From Syntrophorhabdaceae bacterium (GTDB taxonomy: Bacteria; Desulfobacterota; Syntrophorhabdia; Syntrophorhabdales; Syntrophorhabdaceae): DNA of 64,000 bases. The notes beneath the pieces are model-generated. The model did no database searches, had not been told where the DNA came from, and saw only the letters and a program-made list of their open reading frames with translations. Made by a program: the position numbers and the translations under genes. Where the stretch lies: the NCBI GenBank assembly GCA_963665295.1, contig OY762209.1, positions 1,952,001-2,016,000 of the forward strand. The letters run 5' to 3'. Below, in pieces: positions 2,479-11,492 of the stretch; the first letter of the stretch is position 1; every line of letters begins with the position of its first letter.

Positions 2479-3255
2479 TCAGGAGGCGATATTCTTCCTC
2501 AGGGTTTTGAAGAAAGCGTGGGCTTCCTCGTAATCCTTCGCCTTTATCACATGCTTGAGGAATTCGAGGCGTGACGTGATCCGGTCGAGTTCCCTCAGGG
2601 AATGGGGGTTGAAGAGTATCTCGGAAAGGAGGTGGTCGTCCTCCGAGAGGAGGCCCTCGGCGATGGCCATGTGTTTCTTGAATGTGGTCCCCGGCACGGC
2701 CTTTGCGTCAAGGCAGGCGGCGAAGGTCAGGGAGGATACGAAGGGAATGGTGAGAGAATAAGCCATCATGCGGTCGTGTTCCTCAAAAGAGTACTCCACG
2801 AGGTTGAGACCGAACCCCGAGAAGAATGCCCTGAAGAAGTCCGCACCCCATTTGTCCGACTCCTTTATCACGACTGCGTGTTCTTCCTTTAACGCCGACA
2901 TGTCCGCGAAGGTGGGACCGAACATGGGGTGGATGGAGACGAACCTGAAAGGGCATGTCTCGTAGTAAGCCCGGACCTCCTGTTTCACCGATGTCATGTC
3001 GCAGAGTACGCAGTCCTTCGAAAGATATCCTTCCACATCCCGGAAGGTGCGCACCGTCTCCTCCAGGCTCACCGCGTTGATAAGCATCTCCGGCGCGAAT
3101 GCGCCCACTTCAGGCAGTCGGGTGAGGATTTCAACACCCTCGAGGCCTTCCGTTTTCTTCCTGTCTTCGTCGTACACCGCGACCCGGTTTCCCGCTGAAA
3201 GCCGCCCGGCAAACCATGCGCCCATGCGTCCCGTTCCCAATATGGCTATCTTCAT
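2479..3255 (-). CDS. tyrA: Prephenate dehydrogenase
   Basis: MKIAILGTGRMG Rossmann motif, DMTSVK, HPMFGP, EEHDRMMA; ATGA overlap with the pheA stop. Confidence 0.9.
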   Translation of the reverse strand: MKIAILGTGRMGAWFAGRLSAGNRVAVYDEDRKKTEGLEGVEILTRLPEVGAFAPEMLINAVSLEETVRTFRDVEGYLSKDCVLCDMTSVKQEVRAYYETCPFRFVSIHPMFGPTFADMSALKEEHAVVIKESDKWGADFFRAFFSGFGLNLVEYSFEEHDRMMAYSLTIPFVSSLTFAACLDAKAVPGTTFKKHMAIAEGLLSEDDHLLSEILFNPHSLRELDRITSRLEFLKHVIKAKDYEEAHAFFKTLRKNIAS

Positions 3256-4310
3256 GCCCGTATCCCCCTGTAGCACCCCAGAAATCTGTAGGTCTTCGTT
3301 TTACGCCGGACGCTCTTCAGGGCGTCGATCACCACCTGGTCCTTGTGGGAGCCTTCGAAATCGAGGAAGAACCTGTAGTAGCCGAGTACGCTCCGAAGGG
3401 GTCTCGACTCTATGCGGGTGAGGTTTATCCCCGCGTCGGAGAATACCTTCATCACCGAGGAGAGGGAACCCGTTTCGTGGGCGATGGAGAATACTATGGA
3501 ACACTTGTCGCCCTCCTCCGCCGCTTCATGGGACGAGAGGATGATGAATCGCGTGGAATTCGATTCGTGGTCCCCGATATCTTCCTTGACGATGTTCAGA
3601 TGGTAAAGTTTGGCGCAGAGGGCGCTTGCGATCACTGCCGCCGATTGGGACCCCTCATGGGAGAGCATCTTCGCGGCGCCCGCAGTGTCGTAGAAGGGCC
3701 GGGCCTCGATCTTGTGGCGCGAAAGAAAACCGCGACACTGGGCAAGGGCCTGGGGATGGGAATAGATCACCTTCAGGTCCCTGTGGTTCGTTTCAGGCAG
3801 GGCGAGGAGGCAGTGATGGATGGGGAGCGTGATTTCCCCCACGATCTTCAGCTCCGTTTTTGCGAGGAGGTCGTTCACCTGGGTGACCGCCCCTTCGAGG
3901 GAATTCTCCACGGGCACGATGCCGAAGTCGAGCTGTCCCGCCGCGACCTCCGCGAATACCTCGGGAAACTCCCTGCACGGGATGGGCACTGCGGACGGGT
4001 CATAGGCAAGGGCGGCCGCTTCGCTGTATGCGCCGTGCTCGCCCTGGAAGCCGACCAGTTTGAGCCCCTCTTTCTGAAGACGGGTACTCTCGTGTATGAT
4101 CCTGCGGTACAGGTCTTCGCAAAAGTCCGCGCCCGCTATGCCCGAGGCTGAGGCGCGCACGTTTTCTATCACCTTTTTCTCTCTTTCCGGCTCATAGACA
4201 TTATCCTTCAGCCTCCCGACCCGGAGACAGAGCTCCATCCGTTGCTTCAGAAGGGCCACAAGGTCATAATCGATGCCGTCGATCTTTTTCCGTGCTTTAT
4301 CGAGGTCCAT
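3252..4310 (-). CDS. pheA: Chorismate mutase / prephenate dehydratase
   Basis: N-terminal AroQ-like domain (RKKIDGID), FQGEHGAYSE, PVENSLEG, SHPQALAQC, TRF, ACT domain with IESRP. Confidence 0.95.
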   Translation of the reverse strand: MDLDKARKKIDGIDYDLVALLKQRMELCLRVGRLKDNVYEPEREKKVIENVRASASGIAGADFCEDLYRRIIHESTRLQKEGLKLVGFQGEHGAYSEAAALAYDPSAVPIPCREFPEVFAEVAAGQLDFGIVPVENSLEGAVTQVNDLLAKTELKIVGEITLPIHHCLLALPETNHRDLKVIYSHPQALAQCRGFLSRHKIEARPFYDTAGAAKMLSHEGSQSAAVIASALCAKLYHLNIVKEDIGDHESNSTRFIILSSHEAAEEGDKCSIVFSIAHETGSLSSVMKVFSDAGINLTRIESRPLRSVLGYYRFFLDFEGSHKDQVVIDALKSVRRKTKTYRFLGCYRGIRA

Positions 4311-5306
4311 TTATTCCGTCACCACCTTAGGTATTTTTTGGTCCATAAAGAGTAAGTCAGCGAGGACAAGGGCAGTAGCCGCTTCGAGGATGACCGGCAC
4401 CCTGAGGGCGATGCACGTGTCGTGGCGGCCCTCCACTGAGAGGCCGACGATCTCCCCGGTTTCGAGGTGCACGGTGCGCTGGGGGAGGGATATGCTCGAC
4501 GTGGGTTTGACCGCGACCCGAAAGACCAGTTCGTTTCCGTTCGATATCCCGCCGTGTATACCCCCCGCGTTGTTTGTCCGCGTCTCTCCGGAGAGGTTAA
4601 TAATTTCATCGTTGTATGCGCTCCCCTCCATGCGGGCGCAGGCGAACCCCGCGCCGAATTCCAGGCCCTTGATGCCGGGGATGGAAAAGACAAAGTGGCT
4701 TATGAGGGACTCAAGGGAATCGAAGAATGGCTCGCCCAATCCTGCGGGCAACCCCTTGGCCCGGCACTCCACGATGCCCCCGATGGAATCGCGGGCTTTG
4801 AGGGCCTTGCTCACCGCCCCTTCGATGTCGGTGCTTCCGCCTGCCTCGATGAGGGTGGCCTCGATGCGGACGGGGCTTAGCAGTTTTTTCGCCACCACCC
4901 CGGCTGCAACCACGGCAGCAGTCAGTCTTCCGGAGAAATGGCCGCCACCCCGGTAATCGTTGAACCCGCCGAATTTCATGAAGGCCGTCATGTCCGCGTG
5001 ACCAGGCCTCGGCGTCTGTCTTATCTTCTCGTATGCCCGGGAATCGACGTCCTTGTTCTCGAAGAGGATGAGAATGGGCGCGCCCGTTGTCTTTCCTTTC
5101 ATGAAACCGCTCATGATGCGGGGCACGTCGTCTTCGTTCCGCGCCGTGGTGCCCGCTCTCCCACCCTTTCTCCGCGCGAGGTCCGCGACAAAATCCTCGG
5201 GGGAGAGGGCCAGTCCCGCGGGACAGCCGTCGATAAGGGCGCCCACCCATTCGCCATGGGACTCCCCCAATATGCTAAGCCTCAACAACCTGCCGAAGGT
5301 ATTCAT
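4311..5306 (-). CDS. aroC: Chorismate synthase
   Basis: MNTFG..GESHG, RPGHAD, GGGHFSGRLT, GGISNG, KPTSSI, GRHD. Start set at ATG 5306 (ATGA overlap with aroA stop). Confidence 0.95.
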   Translation of the reverse strand: MNTFGRLLRLSILGESHGEWVGALIDGCPAGLALSPEDFVADLARRKGGRAGTTARNEDDVPRIMSGFMKGKTTGAPILILFENKDVDSRAYEKIRQTPRPGHADMTAFMKFGGFNDYRGGGHFSGRLTAAVVAAGVVAKKLLSPVRIEATLIEAGGSTDIEGAVSKALKARDSIGGIVECRAKGLPAGLGEPFFDSLESLISHFVFSIPGIKGLEFGAGFACARMEGSAYNDEIINLSGETRTNNAGGIHGGISNGNELVFRVAVKPTSSISLPQRTVHLETGEIVGLSVEGRHDTCIALRVPVILEAATALVLADLLFMDQKIPKVVTE

Positions 5307-6550
5307 GGAATCTCCTGTAATTTGCCGAGATCGTGAAAGAAATCGGGGTATGATTTCGAAACGGCGGCCCAGTTCCCGATATGCACGGGTCCTGTCCCCG
5401 CGAGGGCCGCAACGGCGCACGCCATGGCGATCCTGTGGTCGTTATGGGAGTCCACTTGGGCCTCTTTCGTGGAGCCGCCCCGCACCTCCATGGTATCTCC
5501 GGAGATGGTGACGGCAATGCCCATCTTCCCGAACTCGCTCGCCAGGGCCCGGGCCCGGTCGCTTTCCTTGTGTTTCAGCCGACCCGCCCCGTGAATCACG
5601 CTTGTCCCCTCACACGCGCTCGCAAGGGCGACAAGGGGAGGAAAGAGGTCCGGGCAATCGGTAGCGTCGAAGGTGAAGCCGTGCAAGACCTTCCTTTGCG
5701 CCTGAAGCCAGTCCTTTCCCATGACGATACCCGCCCCTGCCTCCGCAAGGGCGCCGACCACGGCTTTATCCGCCTGGAAAGAGAAAGGATCGAGTCCCCG
5801 GACCAGCACGTTTCCCGCGATCGCTCCCGCCACCAGGAGGAACGCGGCGGCCGACCAGTCTCCTTCGACCTTGTAGGCAGTGCCCCGGTACGCCTGCCGG
5901 CCGGGGATCGAGAATACGGCACAGTCTTCATCGTGCTCTATCATGATCCCGAAGTGTTCGAGAAGGGAGACGGTCATTCTGACATAGGGCGCGCTTTTGA
6001 GGTGAGAAGCGAAAATTGTGGAAGGCTCACCGCACACGGGAAGGGCCATGAGGAGCCCGGTCAGGAACTGGGAGGTTACGGCCGCATCGATGTGTATGGA
6101 GCCTCCCTTCAAGGGGCCCTTTATCATGATAGGGGCGCAACCGTTATCCGTGGCGCAGTATGCGTGGAGAGTGCGGAGTTTTTCGACCATCTCCATGGGC
6201 CGGGCCCTCAACGATCCGGAAGCAACAAGGATGGTCTCTTCAGCGGTGAGGGCCGCGATGGGGGCGAACATGCGCATGCAAAGCCCGGATTCTCCGCAAT
6301 CGAGGACCCTTTTACCCGAACTTTTGGTGAGACCGGACCTTATGATCAGGGTATCGCCCTTTCCCGTGATCTTTGACCCCATGGCCTCTATGACCCGCGA
6401 TGCGCTCAGGGCGTCGTCGCAATGGGAGGTGCGGTGTATGGTTACTTCGCCCGTGACGAGGGAAGCGGCGGCTATGGCGCGCACCGCCATGCTCTTCGAC
6501 GGGGGCGCAATTACTTTTCCTCTGACCTCAGAGGGGTTTATGGATTTCAT
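5303..6550 (-). CDS. aroA: EPSP synthase
   Basis: PPSKS, DCGESG..MR, SQFLTGLL, KESDR, HNDHRIAM, KSYPDFF. Start set at ATG 6550. Confidence 0.95.
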   Translation of the reverse strand: MKSINPSEVRGKVIAPPSKSMAVRAIAAASLVTGEVTIHRTSHCDDALSASRVIEAMGSKITGKGDTLIIRSGLTKSSGKRVLDCGESGLCMRMFAPIAALTAEETILVASGSLRARPMEMVEKLRTLHAYCATDNGCAPIMIKGPLKGGSIHIDAAVTSQFLTGLLMALPVCGEPSTIFASHLKSAPYVRMTVSLLEHFGIMIEHDEDCAVFSIPGRQAYRGTAYKVEGDWSAAAFLLVAGAIAGNVLVRGLDPFSFQADKAVVGALAEAGAGIVMGKDWLQAQRKVLHGFTFDATDCPDLFPPLVALASACEGTSVIHGAGRLKHKESDRARALASEFGKMGIAVTISGDTMEVRGGSTKEAQVDSHNDHRIAMACAVAALAGTGPVHIGNWAAVSKSYPDFFHDLGKLQEIP

Positions 6551-7829
6551 GACATATCCTTTCTGTGATTTCCCGGGGTCCCAAATTGTCCGTATCGATG
6601 ATGAGATCGGAGGCTCTCGCATAGAGGGGCAGCCGCTCGCGGAGCAAGGCGTCCACCCGGGCCGGTTTGTCGGCTCCGGAAAGGAGCGGCCTCGCGCCGT
6701 CGCTGCCGATCCTTTCCATGATTGTCTCCGGGCTTGCCCAGAGCCACACGGAAACGCAGCGGTCCTTGATTGCTTTCACGTTCCCTTCCCGGGTCACTAC
6801 CCCGCCGCCGAAGGAGATCACCGCATTGGAGAGGCCGGCGGCCCGCATTACCTCTATCTCTTCCAGTTCCCTGAAGGCGTCCTCCTTGTGGCGCTTGAAG
6901 AACTCGGCTATGGGGAGGCCCGTCTGCTCCTCGATGGATTCGTCCGTGTCAACGGCAATCATGTTCAATCGCGCGGCAATGCTTTCCGCCGCCCGTGACT
7001 TTCCCACTCCCATGAAGCCTATGAGCCCCACATTCTCCTTCCGCGCCCCCTGTGTGCGATAAAGGGCGGACCTCATGACATCCAGAGGCGCTTTGGCGCC
7101 CGTAAAGATGCTGAAGGCGGGAAGGGCCTGGAAAAGGAGCCATTCCCGTGCGTCTATGATCCTCGAACCCATGGCCCGCGCGTCTGCCGTGAGGGCGGTT
7201 TCAAGGGAATAATTCGCATCGAGGACTGTCAGGCTTTTGCTCAGGGCCGAAGGGGAGACAAACCTCCCTGCGGAGGGGATACAGGAGACAAGGATGTCGG
7301 CGTTACGCACCGATTCATCTATGTCGTCCATGGAGACCGCGGCGCACCCCATGAGCCCGGCGGTCACCCGTGCCCGGTCAAAAGAGCGGTTTATGAGAGT
7401 CACCTTCGCTCCCGAGGCGTTGAGGGCGTATACGGCCGCCTTTCCCGCTCCGCTCGCGCCGAGGACCACCGCCCGCTGCCCCCTCAAGGGGACGCCGTTA
7501 CGGGCCAGGGCGTCGCAAACCCCGGTATGGTCCGTGTTGTAACCCTTGAATCGACCGTTTTCGTGAACCACCGTGTTTACGGAGGCGAGCCTTCTCGCGT
7601 CGTCATCCACTTCATCAAGATAGGGGATGATCCCGATCTTGAAGGGCGAGGTGACATTGAAGCCGGCGAGTCCCACTTTCCTTGCGGTCTCCATGACTTC
7701 CGCGGCGGTCTCGGCGGCGATCCGGGTATAGGTTGCGTCAATCGACAGGGCCCGGAAGGCGGCGTTGAAGATTTCGGGGCTCCTGCTGTGAAGGACGGGG
7801 TTTCCCGCCACGGCGAATATGGCTCCCAT
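6528..7829 (-). CDS. aroE: Shikimate dehydrogenase-shikimate kinase fusion (AroE-AroK)
   Basis: N-terminal half has HSRSP, NVTSPFK, NTD, GASGAG. C-terminal half has Walker A GFMGVGKS, FRELE, GGG, RPLL, R.PLY. Confidence 0.9.
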   Translation of the reverse strand: MGAIFAVAGNPVLHSRSPEIFNAAFRALSIDATYTRIAAETAAEVMETARKVGLAGFNVTSPFKIGIIPYLDEVDDDARRLASVNTVVHENGRFKGYNTDHTGVCDALARNGVPLRGQRAVVLGASGAGKAAVYALNASGAKVTLINRSFDRARVTAGLMGCAAVSMDDIDESVRNADILVSCIPSAGRFVSPSALSKSLTVLDANYSLETALTADARAMGSRIIDAREWLLFQALPAFSIFTGAKAPLDVMRSALYRTQGARKENVGLIGFMGVGKSRAAESIAARLNMIAVDTDESIEEQTGLPIAEFFKRHKEDAFRELEEIEVMRAAGLSNAVISFGGGVVTREGNVKAIKDRCVSVWLWASPETIMERIGSDGARPLLSGADKPARVDALLRERLPLYARASDLIIDTDNLGPREITERICHEIHKPL

Positions 7830-7830
7830 C

Positions 7831-8511
7831 CTACCCCTCACGCTCCGATTCTCTCGCGGGACGGGCCTTTATGCCGTTCAGGGCGAGGTGCTCGATACAT
7901 TTTTTGACGGTGTGCCGGTCGAGCTGACCTTCCACCACTTCCTTTCCCGGGGCATAGGCTGCGTAGGTAAAGGGGCTCCCCAGGAGGGGCGCGAGGACCC
8001 TTGTGACGCTCCCCTCCTTTCCCATGCCTATGACGACCGTGGGCTTTGGGGAATCGAGAAGTCCCAGGAGTCGCGCACTGTCCCTTGCCGATTTCGCCAT
8101 GCACGATATTTTGGCGATATCCGCACCTGCATCGAAGCACCGGGAAGCGATGTGGAGCAGTTCTTCCCTTTCAGGCGTTTCTTCATAATTGTGGTACGAG
8201 ACGATCACCTTGCATCCTTTTGAGCGGGCCTTTTCTATGATTTCGTCCCTCAATGACAGGGCCGATTCCATCTCCACGTCCACGAAGGACGCCCCTGCCT
8301 CCACAGCGGCGAGGAGGAGTCCTCTCCGTTCGTCGTCGTTCCCGACGCCGGGCCGGCATGTGGCGATGAGGTTATCATGGCCCGAGAACAGGGCGCGTAC
8401 ATCATCGGCGCTCACCTTCATGGCGTCCAGCCTGATTTCCGCAAAGGAAAGGTCCTTGAGAAGGGAGCGGCAGGACTCTACCGTCGTTTCAGCGAGAGTC
8501 ACACAGATCAT
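7831..8511 (-). CDS. aroD: Type I 3-dehydroquinate dehydratase
   Basis: EIRLD, IATCR, VDVE, IVSYHNY..TP, ADIAKI, MG..G..TR, GQL. Confidence 0.92.
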   Translation of the reverse strand: MICVTLAETTVESCRSLLKDLSFAEIRLDAMKVSADDVRALFSGHDNLIATCRPGVGNDDERRGLLLAAVEAGASFVDVEMESALSLRDEIIEKARSKGCKVIVSYHNYEETPEREELLHIASRCFDAGADIAKISCMAKSARDSARLLGLLDSPKPTVVIGMGKEGSVTRVLAPLLGSPFTYAAYAPGKEVVEGQLDRHTVKKCIEHLALNGIKARPARESEREG

Positions 8512-9529
8512 TCAGCACCTTTTCCAGATGTTCGAGCCTTATGGGCAGGACCTGTGCGCGCCCTATGGCTTCGAGGAGGACGAAGTTCATCTTCTCTCCC
8601 GCCCTCTTTTTGTCCTTCCTCACCGCGTCGATCATCATCTCCTTGTCCATCTTTGCTTCAAGGGGAAGTCCGAAATGGCTGATCACCGTTTCGATCCTTT
8701 TCACGTCACCCAGGGTGAGCATGCCCATCTTTTCGGACAGTCTGGCTGCGAGTACCATTCCTATGCCTATGGCCTCACCGTGCCTGAGGCCGGCGGTTTT
8801 CTCCAGGGCATGGCCGAAGGTGTGGCCGAAATTGAGTTTCCTCCTCTCGCCCTGTTCGGTCTCATCGAGAGAGACGATACCTTTTTTGACTATGAGGGAA
8901 TCATGGACAACACTCTCGATCACCCCCTTGTCAAAAACGAGCGCCTTTTCCCATTCGTTTTCAAGGTGAGAGAAGAGGGATGCGTCGCCTATGAGGGCGT
9001 GTTTGATCACCTCGGCGTAGCCGTTCTTGACCTCGCTGTCCGGCAGGGACTTGAGAAGGTCGAGATCGCACACGACAAAGCTGGGCTGATTGAAAGCGCC
9101 TATAAGGTTTTTGTATCCCCGGTAGTTGATGCCGTTCTTCCCGCCCACGCTCGCGTCCACCTGGGCAAGGAGGGTGGTGGGCACAAATCCGAACCGGAGC
9201 CCCCTGAGATAAGTCGATGCGGCAAAACCTGCGATATCGCACGTGAGGCCGCCGCCGATGCCGATAACCCACGAGGTGCGGTCAAGGCCGTGTTCCAGGA
9301 AACCTTCGTAAATAGCCTCCACCGTATTCAAAGTCTTGCTTCTCTCGCCCGCGCCTATCTCTACCACTGCGAAATTGGGAAAACGGCTGCCGTACAGACG
9401 GTGCACGGTGGCGTCCGTGATTATGACTCCGTTTCCCGAATTACCGCAGTATTTTCCGAGGTGCCCGATGGACTCTCCAATGGCGATGGTACACTTGCCC
9501 GACTTTCCGTCGATTGACATGCGCCTCAT
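8489..9529 (-). CDS. aroB: 3-dehydroquinate synthase
   Basis: [47 protein letters not shown]. Confidence 0.96.
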
Positions 9530-10338
9530 AGGGACACACTCATGAACTGTTCCAGGGGTCGGACCTTACCCATCATCGCCGCGAACTGGGCGGGGTTCAA
9601 GGCCTGGTCTTTGTCGCAAAGGGCCTGCTCAGGCCGTATGTGCACCTCCACGATGATACCGTCCGCGCCGGCGGCCACCGAGGCGAGACACATGGACGGA
9701 ATGATGCTCACCTTGCCCACCGCATGAGACGGGTCCACAATTACCGGCAGATGGGTCAGTTCCTTGATCACGGGGACTGCGCTCAAATCGAGGGTATTCC
9801 GGGTGTAATTCTCAAAGGTCCGTATTCCACGCTCGCAAAGGATTACATCGGGGTTGCCTTCGCTTAGTATGTATTCGGCACAGTTGAGCCACTCTTCTAT
9901 GGTGGAGTTCATGCCTCTCTTGAGAAGGACGGGCTTCCGCACCCTCCCCACCTCCTTGAGAAGGGAAAAATTCTGCATGTTCCTTGCGCCTATCTGGAGG
10001 ACGTCCGCATATTCGCATACCCATGAGACGTCGCGAGGGTCTATGACCTCGGTCACCACGGGGAGGCCCGTCACTTCCCTGGCCTGTCTCAGGATTTTGA
10101 GACCCATCAGTCCGAGTCCCTGGAACGCGTAGGGGGAGCTTCTCGGTTTGAAGGCGCCTCCGCGGAGGGCATCCGCGCCCGCCTCTTTCACCGCCCGCGC
10201 AGTCTCCACCGTCTGTTCGAGGCTCTCCACGCTGCACGGGCCCGCGATTACGGTAAATCCTTCGCCGATGTTCAGGCTGCCTACCCTCACTATCGTTTTT
10301 TCCCTTCCCTCCAACGCTGTTAACCTTCCGGTCTTCAT
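9526..10338 (-). CDS. aroF: DAHP synthase type I-beta, catalytic barrel only
   Basis: [47 protein letters not shown]; no N-terminal ACT or CM domain. Confidence 0.93.
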
Positions 10339-10376
10339 AATCCCTCCCTGTTCACGACCCTTGTGTCATAGTGGGC

Positions 10377-10410
10377 AAATAAAAAGGGCCATGATATTTT
10401 CATGACCCTC
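10377..10410 (-). terminator. Intrinsic terminator 2 of the aro leader
   Basis: Minus strand GAGGGTCATGA-AAATA-TCATGGCCCTT followed by TTTATTT. Confidence 0.8.
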
Positions 10411-10451
10411 AAAATAAAAAGAGCCATGGGTTATGCACCCACGGCCTCTTT
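10411..10451 (-). terminator. Intrinsic terminator 1 (attenuator) of the aro leader
   Basis: Minus strand AAAGAGGCCGTGGG-TGCATAA-CCCATGGCTCTTT followed by TTATTTT. Confidence 0.85.
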
Positions 10452-10461
10452 GCCTGCCTTG

Positions 10462-10557
10462 CTAAGCCTTAAAGCCCCAAGGGTGCACACCTTTCCCGTA
10501 CCAGTACCAAAAATAATAGTACTCACAACCGGAAACGGCGCCCATCCTAGTGCTCAT
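10462..10557 (-). CDS. Aromatic amino acid attenuator leader peptide, 31 aa
   Basis: MSTRMGAVSGCEYYYFWYWYGKGVHPWGFKA*: eight consecutive Tyr/Phe/Trp codons, upstream of the aro operon and followed by terminators. Confidence 0.9.
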   Translation of the reverse strand: MSTRMGAVSGCEYYYFWYWYGKGVHPWGFKA

Positions 10558-10563
10558 AAACAA

Positions 10564-10593
10564 TATATAACACTATTCCGGAGGGGTTGTCAA
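10564..10593 (-). promoter_or_regulatory. Sigma70-type promoter of the aro leader/operon
   Basis: TTGACA-N18-TATATA with TGn extension; the leader ATG starts after a 6-nt gap. Confidence 0.7.
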
Positions 10594-10907
10594 GGAAAAA
10601 TGGTCTGAAAAGCGGGACGAATGTCCGGGGGCCTCCGTGAAGTCCTTTCGGGCCCCTGTCTCCCGGGTCGGGCAGCGGGTTGACTCTCAGAGGGGTGGAG
10701 CATCAGGGATGCTTGCGCTGTTTCCGCAGATGGGCGGTGTTGCGGCACGCGCCGTGCAAAGCCACCCGTTCCCTGACGTTAACCCCCCCGCGGATGGCGT
10801 CCCGTTCCTCCGGTCTGCCCTGAAGCCGCGGGTCCGCAAGGGGACGAAGCGTGTCTCCGTGGTTCCCCCTCTGCGAGGTCGTGAAGCGATACTTCTAAAA
10901 CGAGGCC

Positions 10908-11492
10908 TTATGCCTTTTCCGAGAACTGTACCATGGCACGGGCCGCCCTTTTCAAAGAATCGGTTATGTCGATATAGAGATAGGATGCCTTCGGCACGCA
11001 GACCCCCATTATCAACCGGTTCTGGTGGACCAGTTCGTACTCCTCGGCCAGTCTCTTGATCTCCTCCATGTTCTTGCGGATGTTCTCTTTCAGGTGAGGA
11101 TTCCCGGTGACCAGGTAATCCCTTGCATCCGTCAACTGGGTGTATACGATGATGAGGAGCGAACCTATCTCCTTCAGTGCCTTGTCCGTGAAGGGAATCT
11201 GCGCCTCTGCCTTGATGGCCATCTTCTCCATTACGTTGGTGATGGCCTGGGCCGCGGACTGAAGAGGGATAACCGTGCTCACGTACTTGATTTCCGCCTC
11301 GTTCTTGTCCGTTTTCTTGATGATCGACTCGGAAAATGCGACGCGGGACTTGAGCAGTTCCCTGAATTTGGCGATGCTGTCTTTTAACAGGGCCACGTTG
11401 TCAGTGATAAAGCCCTTTCTCGCATTCTGTAGAATAGGCAGTGCTTCACCAAAAACGTCGGAAAGCATTTTGGTAAGTCGTTCGTCTTCCAT
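10908..11492 (-). CDS. PhoU-like helical domain protein resembling the Na/Pi cotransporter C-terminus
   Basis: H.NRL..G.C...AS..Y.DI...L.R pattern; helical character; GGAGG RBS. Confidence 0.65.
   Translation of the reverse strand: MEDERLTKMLSDVFGEALPILQNARKGFITDNVALLKDSIAKFRELLKSRVAFSESIIKKTDKNEAEIKYVSTVIPLQSAAQAITNVMEKMAIKAEAQIPFTDKALKEIGSLLIIVYTQLTDARDYLVTGNPHLKENIRKNMEEIKRLAEEYELVHQNRLIMGVCVPKASYLYIDITDSLKRAARAMVQFSEKA

Follow-up and report, generated by a model that had tools for sequence, protein, structure and literature searches.

A candidate leader-peptide attenuator with tyrosine, phenylalanine and tryptophan codons ahead of the shikimate operon of a Syntrophorhabdaceae bacterium

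The enterobacterial trpL, pheL and pheM elements are the classical leader-peptide attenuators, and the attenuator of the enterobacterial his operon works through a chain of alternative hairpins in which a freed strand propagates to the terminator. The common shikimate pathway feeds three amino acids. Here we describe a candidate attenuator of that pathway in a stretch of 64,000 nucleotides (nt), hereafter the window, of a Syntrophorhabdaceae genome (assembly GCA_963665295.1, contig OY762209.1, positions 1,952,001 to 2,016,000). A short open reading frame (ORF) with eight consecutive aromatic codons stands on the minus strand ahead of the operon aroF-aroB-aroD-aroE/K-aroA-aroC-pheA-tyrA. We put at roughly 85% the probability that this element is a ribosome-mediated (leader-peptide) transcription attenuator of the operon.

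The his chain ends in one terminator, whereas the chain proposed here would pass the first complete terminator into a second. The trpL, pheL and pheM elements each serve one amino acid and one branch, from an ORF led by a Shine-Dalgarno site and followed by a single terminator, and the Rfam models for them give no match in the window. What the locus has in common with them, judged from the available text of PMC11802643, is a short ORF of regulatory codons, mutually exclusive terminator and antiterminator structures, and a coupling of translation to transcription. In both cases, the 5' strand of the antiterminator lies at the end of the leader ORF.

In Corynebacterium glutamicum, aroR encodes a leader peptide with the run Phe-Tyr-Phe before aroF (PMC4046766, PMC11802643; these and the other accounts cited were available in part). 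A sequence-only reading of the window had taken known aromatic attenuators to read one amino acid each; given aroR, this premise was too strong. The aroR element responded to Phe limitation, not to Tyr (Neshat et al. 2014, as summarized in PMC11802643). Its likeness to the window locus is functional and drawn from descriptions: a leader for a DAHP synthase, mixed aromatic codons and a read-through that is raised by stalling. However, aroR has three regulatory codons and none for Trp, whereas the window leader has eight in succession for all three amino acids, with two terminators that may be chained and with pheA and tyrA among the eight genes of its operon. The hosts differ as well, one being an actinobacterium and the other a member of the Syntrophorhabdaceae.

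Other published systems share single features with the locus. The uORFC-13-1 motif of Acholeplasma is a candidate upstream ORF before aroF, beside an intrinsic terminator, for which Phe sensing was proposed (PMC8632094). As described there, it is confined to Acholeplasma and environmental sequences and has at least one Phe codon, but no long mixed run. In Deinococcus deserti, 14 predicted attenuator leader peptides begin at transcript 5' ends (PMC4007540). They resemble the window leader in being leaderless, that is, without an untranslated 5' leader, although the phylum differs and the available text of that account makes no mention of aromatic, aroF or tyrosine. Leaderless small ORFs have also been counted in Corynebacterium, where leader peptides are often leaderless (PMC4046766). 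A full-text literature search, with subscription papers outside its coverage, together with the available text of PMC2965389 and PMC545781, returned no description of a Tyr/Phe/Trp leader before aroF. Within the same scope, it returned nothing on this lineage and nothing on tandem terminators in leader-peptide attenuators.

Leader, terminators and alternative pairing

The leader ORF comprises 31 codons and a stop codon on the minus strand (ATG at 10557-10555, end of the stop codon at 10462), and its translation is MSTRMGAVSGCEYYYFWYWYGKGVHPWGFKA. Codons 13-20 (10521-10498) read TAC TAT TAT TTT TGG TAC TGG TAC, or Y Y Y F W Y W Y, with a single Phe codon. Runs of at least eight aromatic codons occur twice in the six frames of the 5,508,164-base genome, where about 0.01 would be expected from the aromatic-codon frequency of 0.075. 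The other run is a poly-T stretch that reads FFFFFFFF. Aromatic runs at 3070007, 4875433, 944843 and 1764504 were rejected as attenuators, as they lack a terminator and lie in or opposite longer frames. Near 3070007, on the plus strand, there is a leader-like stretch, FFFYWYGYNRGVHPRP, with the same GGTGTGCATCC motif at its end and no terminator behind it. The resemblance may be due to chance, or the stretch may be a copy in decay.

Upstream of the ORF, a TTGACA hexamer (10593-10588) is followed after a 17-nt spacer by TTATAT, and 6-7 nt separate the -10 box from the leader ATG. No purine-rich, Shine-Dalgarno-like stretch precedes the ATG in the window. A consensus promoter scan listed no promoter in this region, under a rule that demands A at position 2 of the -10 hexamer. 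Downstream, a terminator scan reported two terminator-like hairpins ahead of aroF, one at 10446-10422 followed by CTTTTTATTT and one at 10410-10384 followed by TTTATTTGCC. The Val-His-Pro codons past the aromatic run (GTGCACCC, 10488-10481) are complementary to part of the 5' arm of terminator 1 (GGGTGCAT, 10440-10433) with one G-U pair, and RNA folding recovered this helix. The isolated antiterminator has a minimum-energy fold of -28.7 kcal/mol. It encloses a small hairpin across the stop codon that is also present in relatives.

To summarize the sequence itself, a short ORF rich in codons for the end products stands before an intrinsic terminator that precedes the first gene, and in silico an antiterminator that excludes the terminator is exposed when a ribosome stalls at the regulatory codons. 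The folds that bear on this were computed with leader nucleotides numbered from the A of the ATG. With no ribosome, region 2 pairs with the 5' part of the ORF in the minimum-energy fold and both terminators are formed. A stall in the first two thirds of the aromatic run was modelled by masking nt 1-53 or 1-62. Under these masks, antiterminator 1 (nt 69-77 with 118-126, and 82-87 with 110-115) has the lowest energy in transcripts of 125 and 136 nt, and at length 147 it lies within 0.3 kcal/mol of terminator 1. At length 160, the lowest energy (-44.3 kcal/mol) belongs to the combination of antiterminators 1 and 2, and the terminator 1 state has -34.9 or -33.6 kcal/mol. When nt 1-74 are masked instead, terminator 1 forms.

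Comparison of relatives points in the same direction. Covariation was assessed in a MAFFT alignment of 45 related leaders, in which 99.4% of the cells of terminator 1 are paired, 7 of its 11 pairs show a compensatory change, and none of 500 shuffles scored as high. For antiterminator 1, 84.2% of cells are paired, vs 28-61% when its partner is slid along the alignment. Both sides change in 4 of its 9 pairs, and the observed covariation was reached by 6-8 of 500 shuffles. The usual pairing joins GCACCC in the leader, which encodes His-Pro, to GGGTGC in the terminator arm. Where the arm reads AGGCGC (L011), GAGTGC (L022) or GGGTGT (L005, L010, L037 and L061), the leader reads GCGCTT, GCACTC or ACACCC, respectively, and in the first two of these cases the peptide goes from His-Pro to Arg-Leu or His-Ser. 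Given that the leader changes in step with the terminator arm while the peptide is altered, the constraint is on the RNA and not on the peptide, and the conserved 'HP' reflects it. RNAalifold, applied to the set with two terminators, returned terminators 1 and 2 together with a local hairpin between region 2 and GGUGU three bases downstream. Such a hairpin could sequester region 2 while the system is off.

The sequence-only reading had placed the ORF and its eight codons between a TTGACA promoter and two terminators, had noted the complementarity of the Val-His-Pro codons and proposed the antiterminator. It had also named stem covariation and folding with and without the ribosome-covered segment as ways to check the proposal. 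The elements reappear at the same positions on the minus strand, the stalled-ribosome folds form the antiterminator, and compensatory changes keep its pairing. The leaderless arrangement, a way past terminator 2 through pairing between the two terminators, and the other leaders of the genome, all taken up below, go beyond that reading.

We propose that the element works as follows. Transcription would begin at or beside the A of the leader ATG, and the 31 codons would be translated without a ribosome-binding site. With all of the Tyr-, Phe- and Trp-tRNAs charged, the ribosome would reach the stop codon, where it would either cover region 2 or occupy the stretch between that region and terminator 1. 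This terminator would then form and stop transcription, and any leakage would be caught by terminator 2. If charged tRNA for any one of the three amino acids is scarce, the ribosome would stall within codons 13-19 and leave region 2 (GUGCACCC) free to pair with the GGGUGCAU strand of the terminator 1 5' arm, which would block that terminator. The 3' arm of terminator 1, freed in this way, would capture the 5' arm of terminator 2 in turn; with terminator 2 blocked as well, the polymerase would enter aroF. Both the stalling at aromatic codons and the chained release of terminator 2 are steps that we infer from the folds and the comparisons. A search for RNA records of the locus listed none, its five matches being contigs of unknown kind.

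Leaders in relatives and elsewhere in the genome

The aromatic run is conserved, and the sequence-only reading had made its own standing depend on this. Among 40 relatives, 20 of 21 regions upstream of aroF orthologues hold a small ORF with an aromatic run. In the order as a whole, this type of aroF was found in 47 of 96 genomes, at 51 places, and all of the upstream regions were compared. An aromatic leader with a GGCCATGGGTGC...CCCATGGCC-type terminator is present at 46 of the 51 loci. These 46 leaders are 19-35 residues long with unrelated N-termini, but the aromatic run is retained; F, Y and W occur together within ten residues in 38 of them, and W is present in 44.

The five loci that lack the module are L019, L127 and the second aroF copies L117, L134 and L136. 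At L127, an array of tandem repeats of about 64 nt takes the leader's place, up to the ribosome-binding site of aroF. The three second copies are paralogues without an aromatic leader, two of which share a different promoter-like region. The remaining 49 of the 96 genomes do not have this aroF type at E <= 1e-90.

Beyond the order, 76 distinct aroF upstream regions from many labelled phyla were compared in the sense and antisense directions. At least six aromatic residues in ten were found in 42 of the sense readings vs 6 of the antisense ones, and at least seven in 30 vs 1, which is consistent with a widespread family of aromatic aroF leaders. A set of loci labelled Candidatus Micrarchaeota (L031, L033-L036, L039, L041, L043-L046, L049, L051, L059 and L085) has aroF genes 72-78% identical to that of the window. 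They carry a different aromatic leader (…FFSFSY…), a canonical terminator with a U tract is absent, and the codons that follow the run (ATCAGGAAAACC) match a GGTTTTCCTGAT further downstream with perfect complementarity. These loci may use a different mechanism, and their taxonomic labels look doubtful.

The 46 leaders also indicate how the ORF may be translated. We measured the distance from the nearest TTGAC upstream of the aromatic run to an in-frame start codon with no stop codon in between. The start codon lies 29-33 nt past the hexamer in 45 leaders and 38 nt past it in one, and it is ATG in 45 and GTG in the other. After a spacer of 17-18 nt and a 6-nt -10 box, 6-9 nt are left before the start codon, which leaves no space for a Shine-Dalgarno site. 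Given that the start codon is at or adjoins the expected transcription start, the leader is probably translated from a leaderless mRNA, a conclusion that we draw from spacing.

Further leaders were found in the same genome by scanning for small ORFs that end just ahead of strong terminators and then inspecting the genes downstream. A Tyr-only leader precedes a gene for a 422-residue aminotransferase dependent on pyridoxal phosphate, and a Phe/Tyr leader precedes two adjacent aminotransferases of the PRK06836 family. A Trp leader precedes genes for a TrpB-like enzyme, an aminotransferase and an indolepyruvate ferredoxin oxidoreductase-like protein, and a 10-nt segment just past its stop codon is complementary to its first terminator. 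Each of these three has two terminators with cross-complementary arms. A Leu-rich leader stands before a leuA-like gene, putatively that of 2-isopropylmalate synthase as judged from the N-terminus of its product, and an Ile/Val/Leu leader precedes ilvB. In the Tyr, Phe/Tyr, Trp and Leu leaders, the spacing from promoter to ATG is as in the aroF leader. Stems of the CC(A/G)(T/C)GG type account for 12 of 412 terminator-like hairpins genome-wide; 8 of the 12 are in the four aromatic attenuators and 1 is in the Leu attenuator.

The strongest argument that the mixed composition of the aroF leader is functional is that branch genes carry branch-specific leaders while the common pathway carries a mixed one. 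The proposal of the sequence-only reading that one leader integrates the charging of the Tyr, Phe and Trp tRNAs is supported by these separate Tyr-only, Trp-only and Phe/Tyr leaders at branch-specific genes, and we retain it as a prediction.

The second terminator and competing explanations

Two terminators are present in 18 of the 46 related leaders and a single one in the other 28. In the window, the palindromic core GGCCATGGCC is common to both terminator stems, which makes terminator 1 complementary through its 3' arm to the 5' arm of terminator 2. The resulting antiterminator 2 would be a helix of 10 bp, with three G-U pairs, between nt 130-139 (terminator 1 3' arm with the beginning of its U tract) and nt 148-157 (terminator 2 5' arm). 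Cells were counted on anchored arms without gaps; in the 18 two-terminator sequences, 155 of 162 cells of antiterminator 2 are paired (95.7%), and when the arms of terminator 2 were permuted among sequences the observed pairing was reached by 0 of 2000 permutations. At the corresponding stage, 14 of 17 two-terminator relatives have the double antiterminator as their minimum-energy structure; 13 of these were scored by script and L004 was judged by eye, and L047 was left out of this comparison as it had been dropped by the hairpin finder. In L002 and L111, which belong to one genus, and in L016, from another family, the central A/T is changed in all four arms and the cross-pair goes from T-A to C-G. 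One ribosome stall could therefore disarm both terminators in a chain, although this is the least secure part of our proposal.

Several observations weigh against the mechanism as proposed. In three of the 17 relatives (L008, L014 and L139), terminator 1 folds at the intermediate stage in place of the antiterminators. Terminator 2, at -16.3 kcal/mol, is more stable than antiterminator 2, at -13.2 kcal/mol. Cross-pairing between the terminators is automatic for copies of a palindromic stem, and the core could reflect duplication; moreover, since the arms vary little among sequences that are themselves related, the permutation test makes the support look stronger than it is. At full length, three states lie within 2-3 kcal/mol of one another, and with a stalled ribosome terminators 1 and 2 are still favoured by that margin, so read-through would be decided by folding kinetics during transcription. 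A ribosome at the stop codon (footprint about 79-106) leaves region 2 (nt 70-77) uncovered; the off state would rest on such a ribosome, sitting between regions 2 and 3, precluding the antiterminator. With regard to sensing, the single Phe codon means that the Phe response of the window leader may be weak. Codon content alone is no proof of sensing, as the aroR leader of C. glutamicum has a Tyr codon and showed no Tyr effect in the available text of PMC11802643.

As a rival reading, the attenuator may be genuine while terminator 2 serves as a constitutive backstop to reduce basal expression, its complementarity being a by-product of copying terminator 1. The 28 leaders with one terminator are in keeping with that idea, and as they have the same palindromic GGCCATGG core, the palindrome does not owe its presence to terminator 2. 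So are the 3 kcal/mol by which terminator 2 exceeds antiterminator 2 and the small differences among the full-length states. However, a terminator of 10-11 bp with a U tract that is never bypassed would cap an essential biosynthetic operon, and the double antiterminator is about 9-11 kcal/mol more stable at the moment when the 5' arm of terminator 2 emerges. In L002, L111 and L016, the four arms have changed together with the cross-pairing still Watson-Crick, and cross-pairing is kept again in the genome's Phe/Tyr leader, both of whose terminators contain AGCCATGGCT. On balance we regard the backstop as unlikely, though it deserves more weight than the two alternatives that follow.

The leader might instead be translated from a longer, leadered transcript whose promoter lies further upstream. 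The promoter scan that listed none here would fit this, as would the start codon of L004, 15 nt past the -10 box, and the distance of about 70 nt between the best promoter and the ATG of the Ile/Val/Leu leader. Yet all 46 relatives have TTGAC followed by an in-frame start at 29-38 nt, the window has nothing like a Shine-Dalgarno stretch ahead of the ATG, and four other leaders of the genome show equal spacing, so we find a leadered transcript improbable. More improbable still, to the point that we give it hardly any credence, is that the aromatic codons are incidental. The locus would then be an RNA switch that is not translated (a riboswitch, a T-box or the target of an RNA-binding protein such as TRAP or PyrR), or its small ORF would make an aromatic-rich peptide with a function of its own. 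The GGCCATGG stems show unusual conservation and are found again at several operons in the genome, which could suggest a common binding factor. However, a search of 9800-11200 with Rfam cmscan at E <= 10 returned Ysr49, DapZ, RMST_2 and GlsR10 only, at 16-17 bits and far below their gathering scores, and a T-box, a riboswitch and the catalogued leader families (Trp_leader, Phe_leader and others) were rejected for want of a match at gathering score. Upstream of region 2, it is the class of codon in one frame that is kept, and not the nucleotide or peptide sequence, while peptide length (19-35 residues) and termini vary. The amino-acid class of each leader fits the pathway downstream, which an RNA that senses a metabolite or a protein would not predict.

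The operon and wider meaning

The sequence-only reading had described a whole shikimate-Phe-Tyr operon behind the leader, and NCBIfam matches bear this out: the eight genes cover the complete common pathway and the Phe and Tyr branches. The first gene is aroF, with its ATG at 10338. The pheA product is a chorismate mutase/prephenate dehydratase, and the prephenate-dehydrogenase-like (tyrA-like) gene at 2479-3276 scores 79.7 bits, under the curated cutoff of 310. Shikimate dehydrogenase and shikimate kinase are fused in one protein of 437 residues (aroE/aroK; 6528-7841, minus strand). Genes similar to etfB and etfA lie further downstream of the operon. The coordinates of all features are collected in Table 1.

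Table 1. Features of the aroF locus (window positions) and other leaders of the same genome (approximate genome positions)
Feature	Position	Strand	Basis or details
-35 hexamer TTGACA	10588..10593	-	read from sequence; TTGAC kept in 46/46 related leaders
-10 region	10564..10570	-	TTATAT (10570-10565), 17-nt spacer; or TGnTATATA, 18-nt spacer
leader ORF, 31 codons + stop	10462..10557	-	read from sequence; probably leaderless
proposed stalling (sensor) segment, eight aromatic codons	10498..10521	-	genome-wide rarity and aromatic run in relatives
region 2, 5' strand of antiterminator 1, (G)GUGCACCC	10481..10489	-	folds and pair counts; Val-His-Pro codons
inner antiterminator	10443..10476	-	nt 82-87 with 110-115 (base of terminator 1 5' arm), enclosing small stop-codon hairpin
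3' strand of antiterminator 1, GGGUGCAU	10440-10433	-	within terminator 1 5' arm
terminator 1	10411..10446	-	stem-loop 10446-10422 and U tract to 10411; -19.3 kcal/mol
proposed antiterminator 2	10401..10428	-	CAUGGCUCUU (10428-10419) with GAGGGUCAUG (10410-10401); fold minimum; inferred
terminator 2	10375..10410	-	stem-loop 10410-10384 and U tract; -16.3 kcal/mol
aroF (3-deoxy-7-phosphoheptulonate synthase, Bacillus-type)	9526..10338	-	NCBIfam NF006421, 435 bits vs cutoff 335
aroB, aroD, aroE/aroK fusion, aroA, aroC, pheA, tyrA-like	2479..9529	-	NCBIfam matches
Tyr-only leader MKIITSAPVSYYYYYYYTKVRS (YYYYYYY)	~1660870-1661035 (L140)	-	two tandem terminators, leaderless-type spacing
Phe/Tyr leader MERKTAVFGFYYYFRNLHPGIFLL (FGFYYYF)	~2718347-2718500 (L141)	-	AGCCATGGCT stems in both terminators
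Trp leader MRNEAISLKTNWWWWRLL (WWWW)	~4699972-4700120 (L142)	-	two terminators
Leu-rich leader MKALKLLLAVRL...	~1224650-1224840	+	leaderless-type spacing, leuA-like gene behind
Ile/Val/Leu leader MIVEKVVLLVVVV...	~5158560-5158700 (L143)	+	precedes ilvB; ~70 nt from best promoter

A broader picture can be drawn more tentatively, and we would place it somewhat short of even odds as a whole. It holds that this lineage has a small regulon of leaderless attenuators, that the aroF leader acts in it as an OR gate with three inputs, and that two terminators are wired in series via the palindromic CCATGG core. The proposed members are the aroF operon, the Tyr, Phe/Tyr, Trp and Leu leaders and, with a longer 5' leader, the Ile/Val/Leu leader. 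The principle is that of the textbook; what appears to be new, as predicted from sequence, is a leaderless leader for three amino acids, the serial wiring of two terminators and the place of the leader in a small attenuator regulon.

From the perspective of pathway control, it is worth considering how the common pathway is regulated without repressors of the TyrR or TrpR type, which is known in detail in few lineages. Here, the setting of the pathway appears to be written into one leader of 31 codons that reads three charged tRNAs, and the leaders for single amino acids at branch genes serve as an internal control for this three-input reading. If the chaining of the two terminators is true, it would offer a simple and evolvable route to low leakage and full induction from one sensor. 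Shut-off would be tighter while inducibility is kept, which may be useful for synthetic attenuators.

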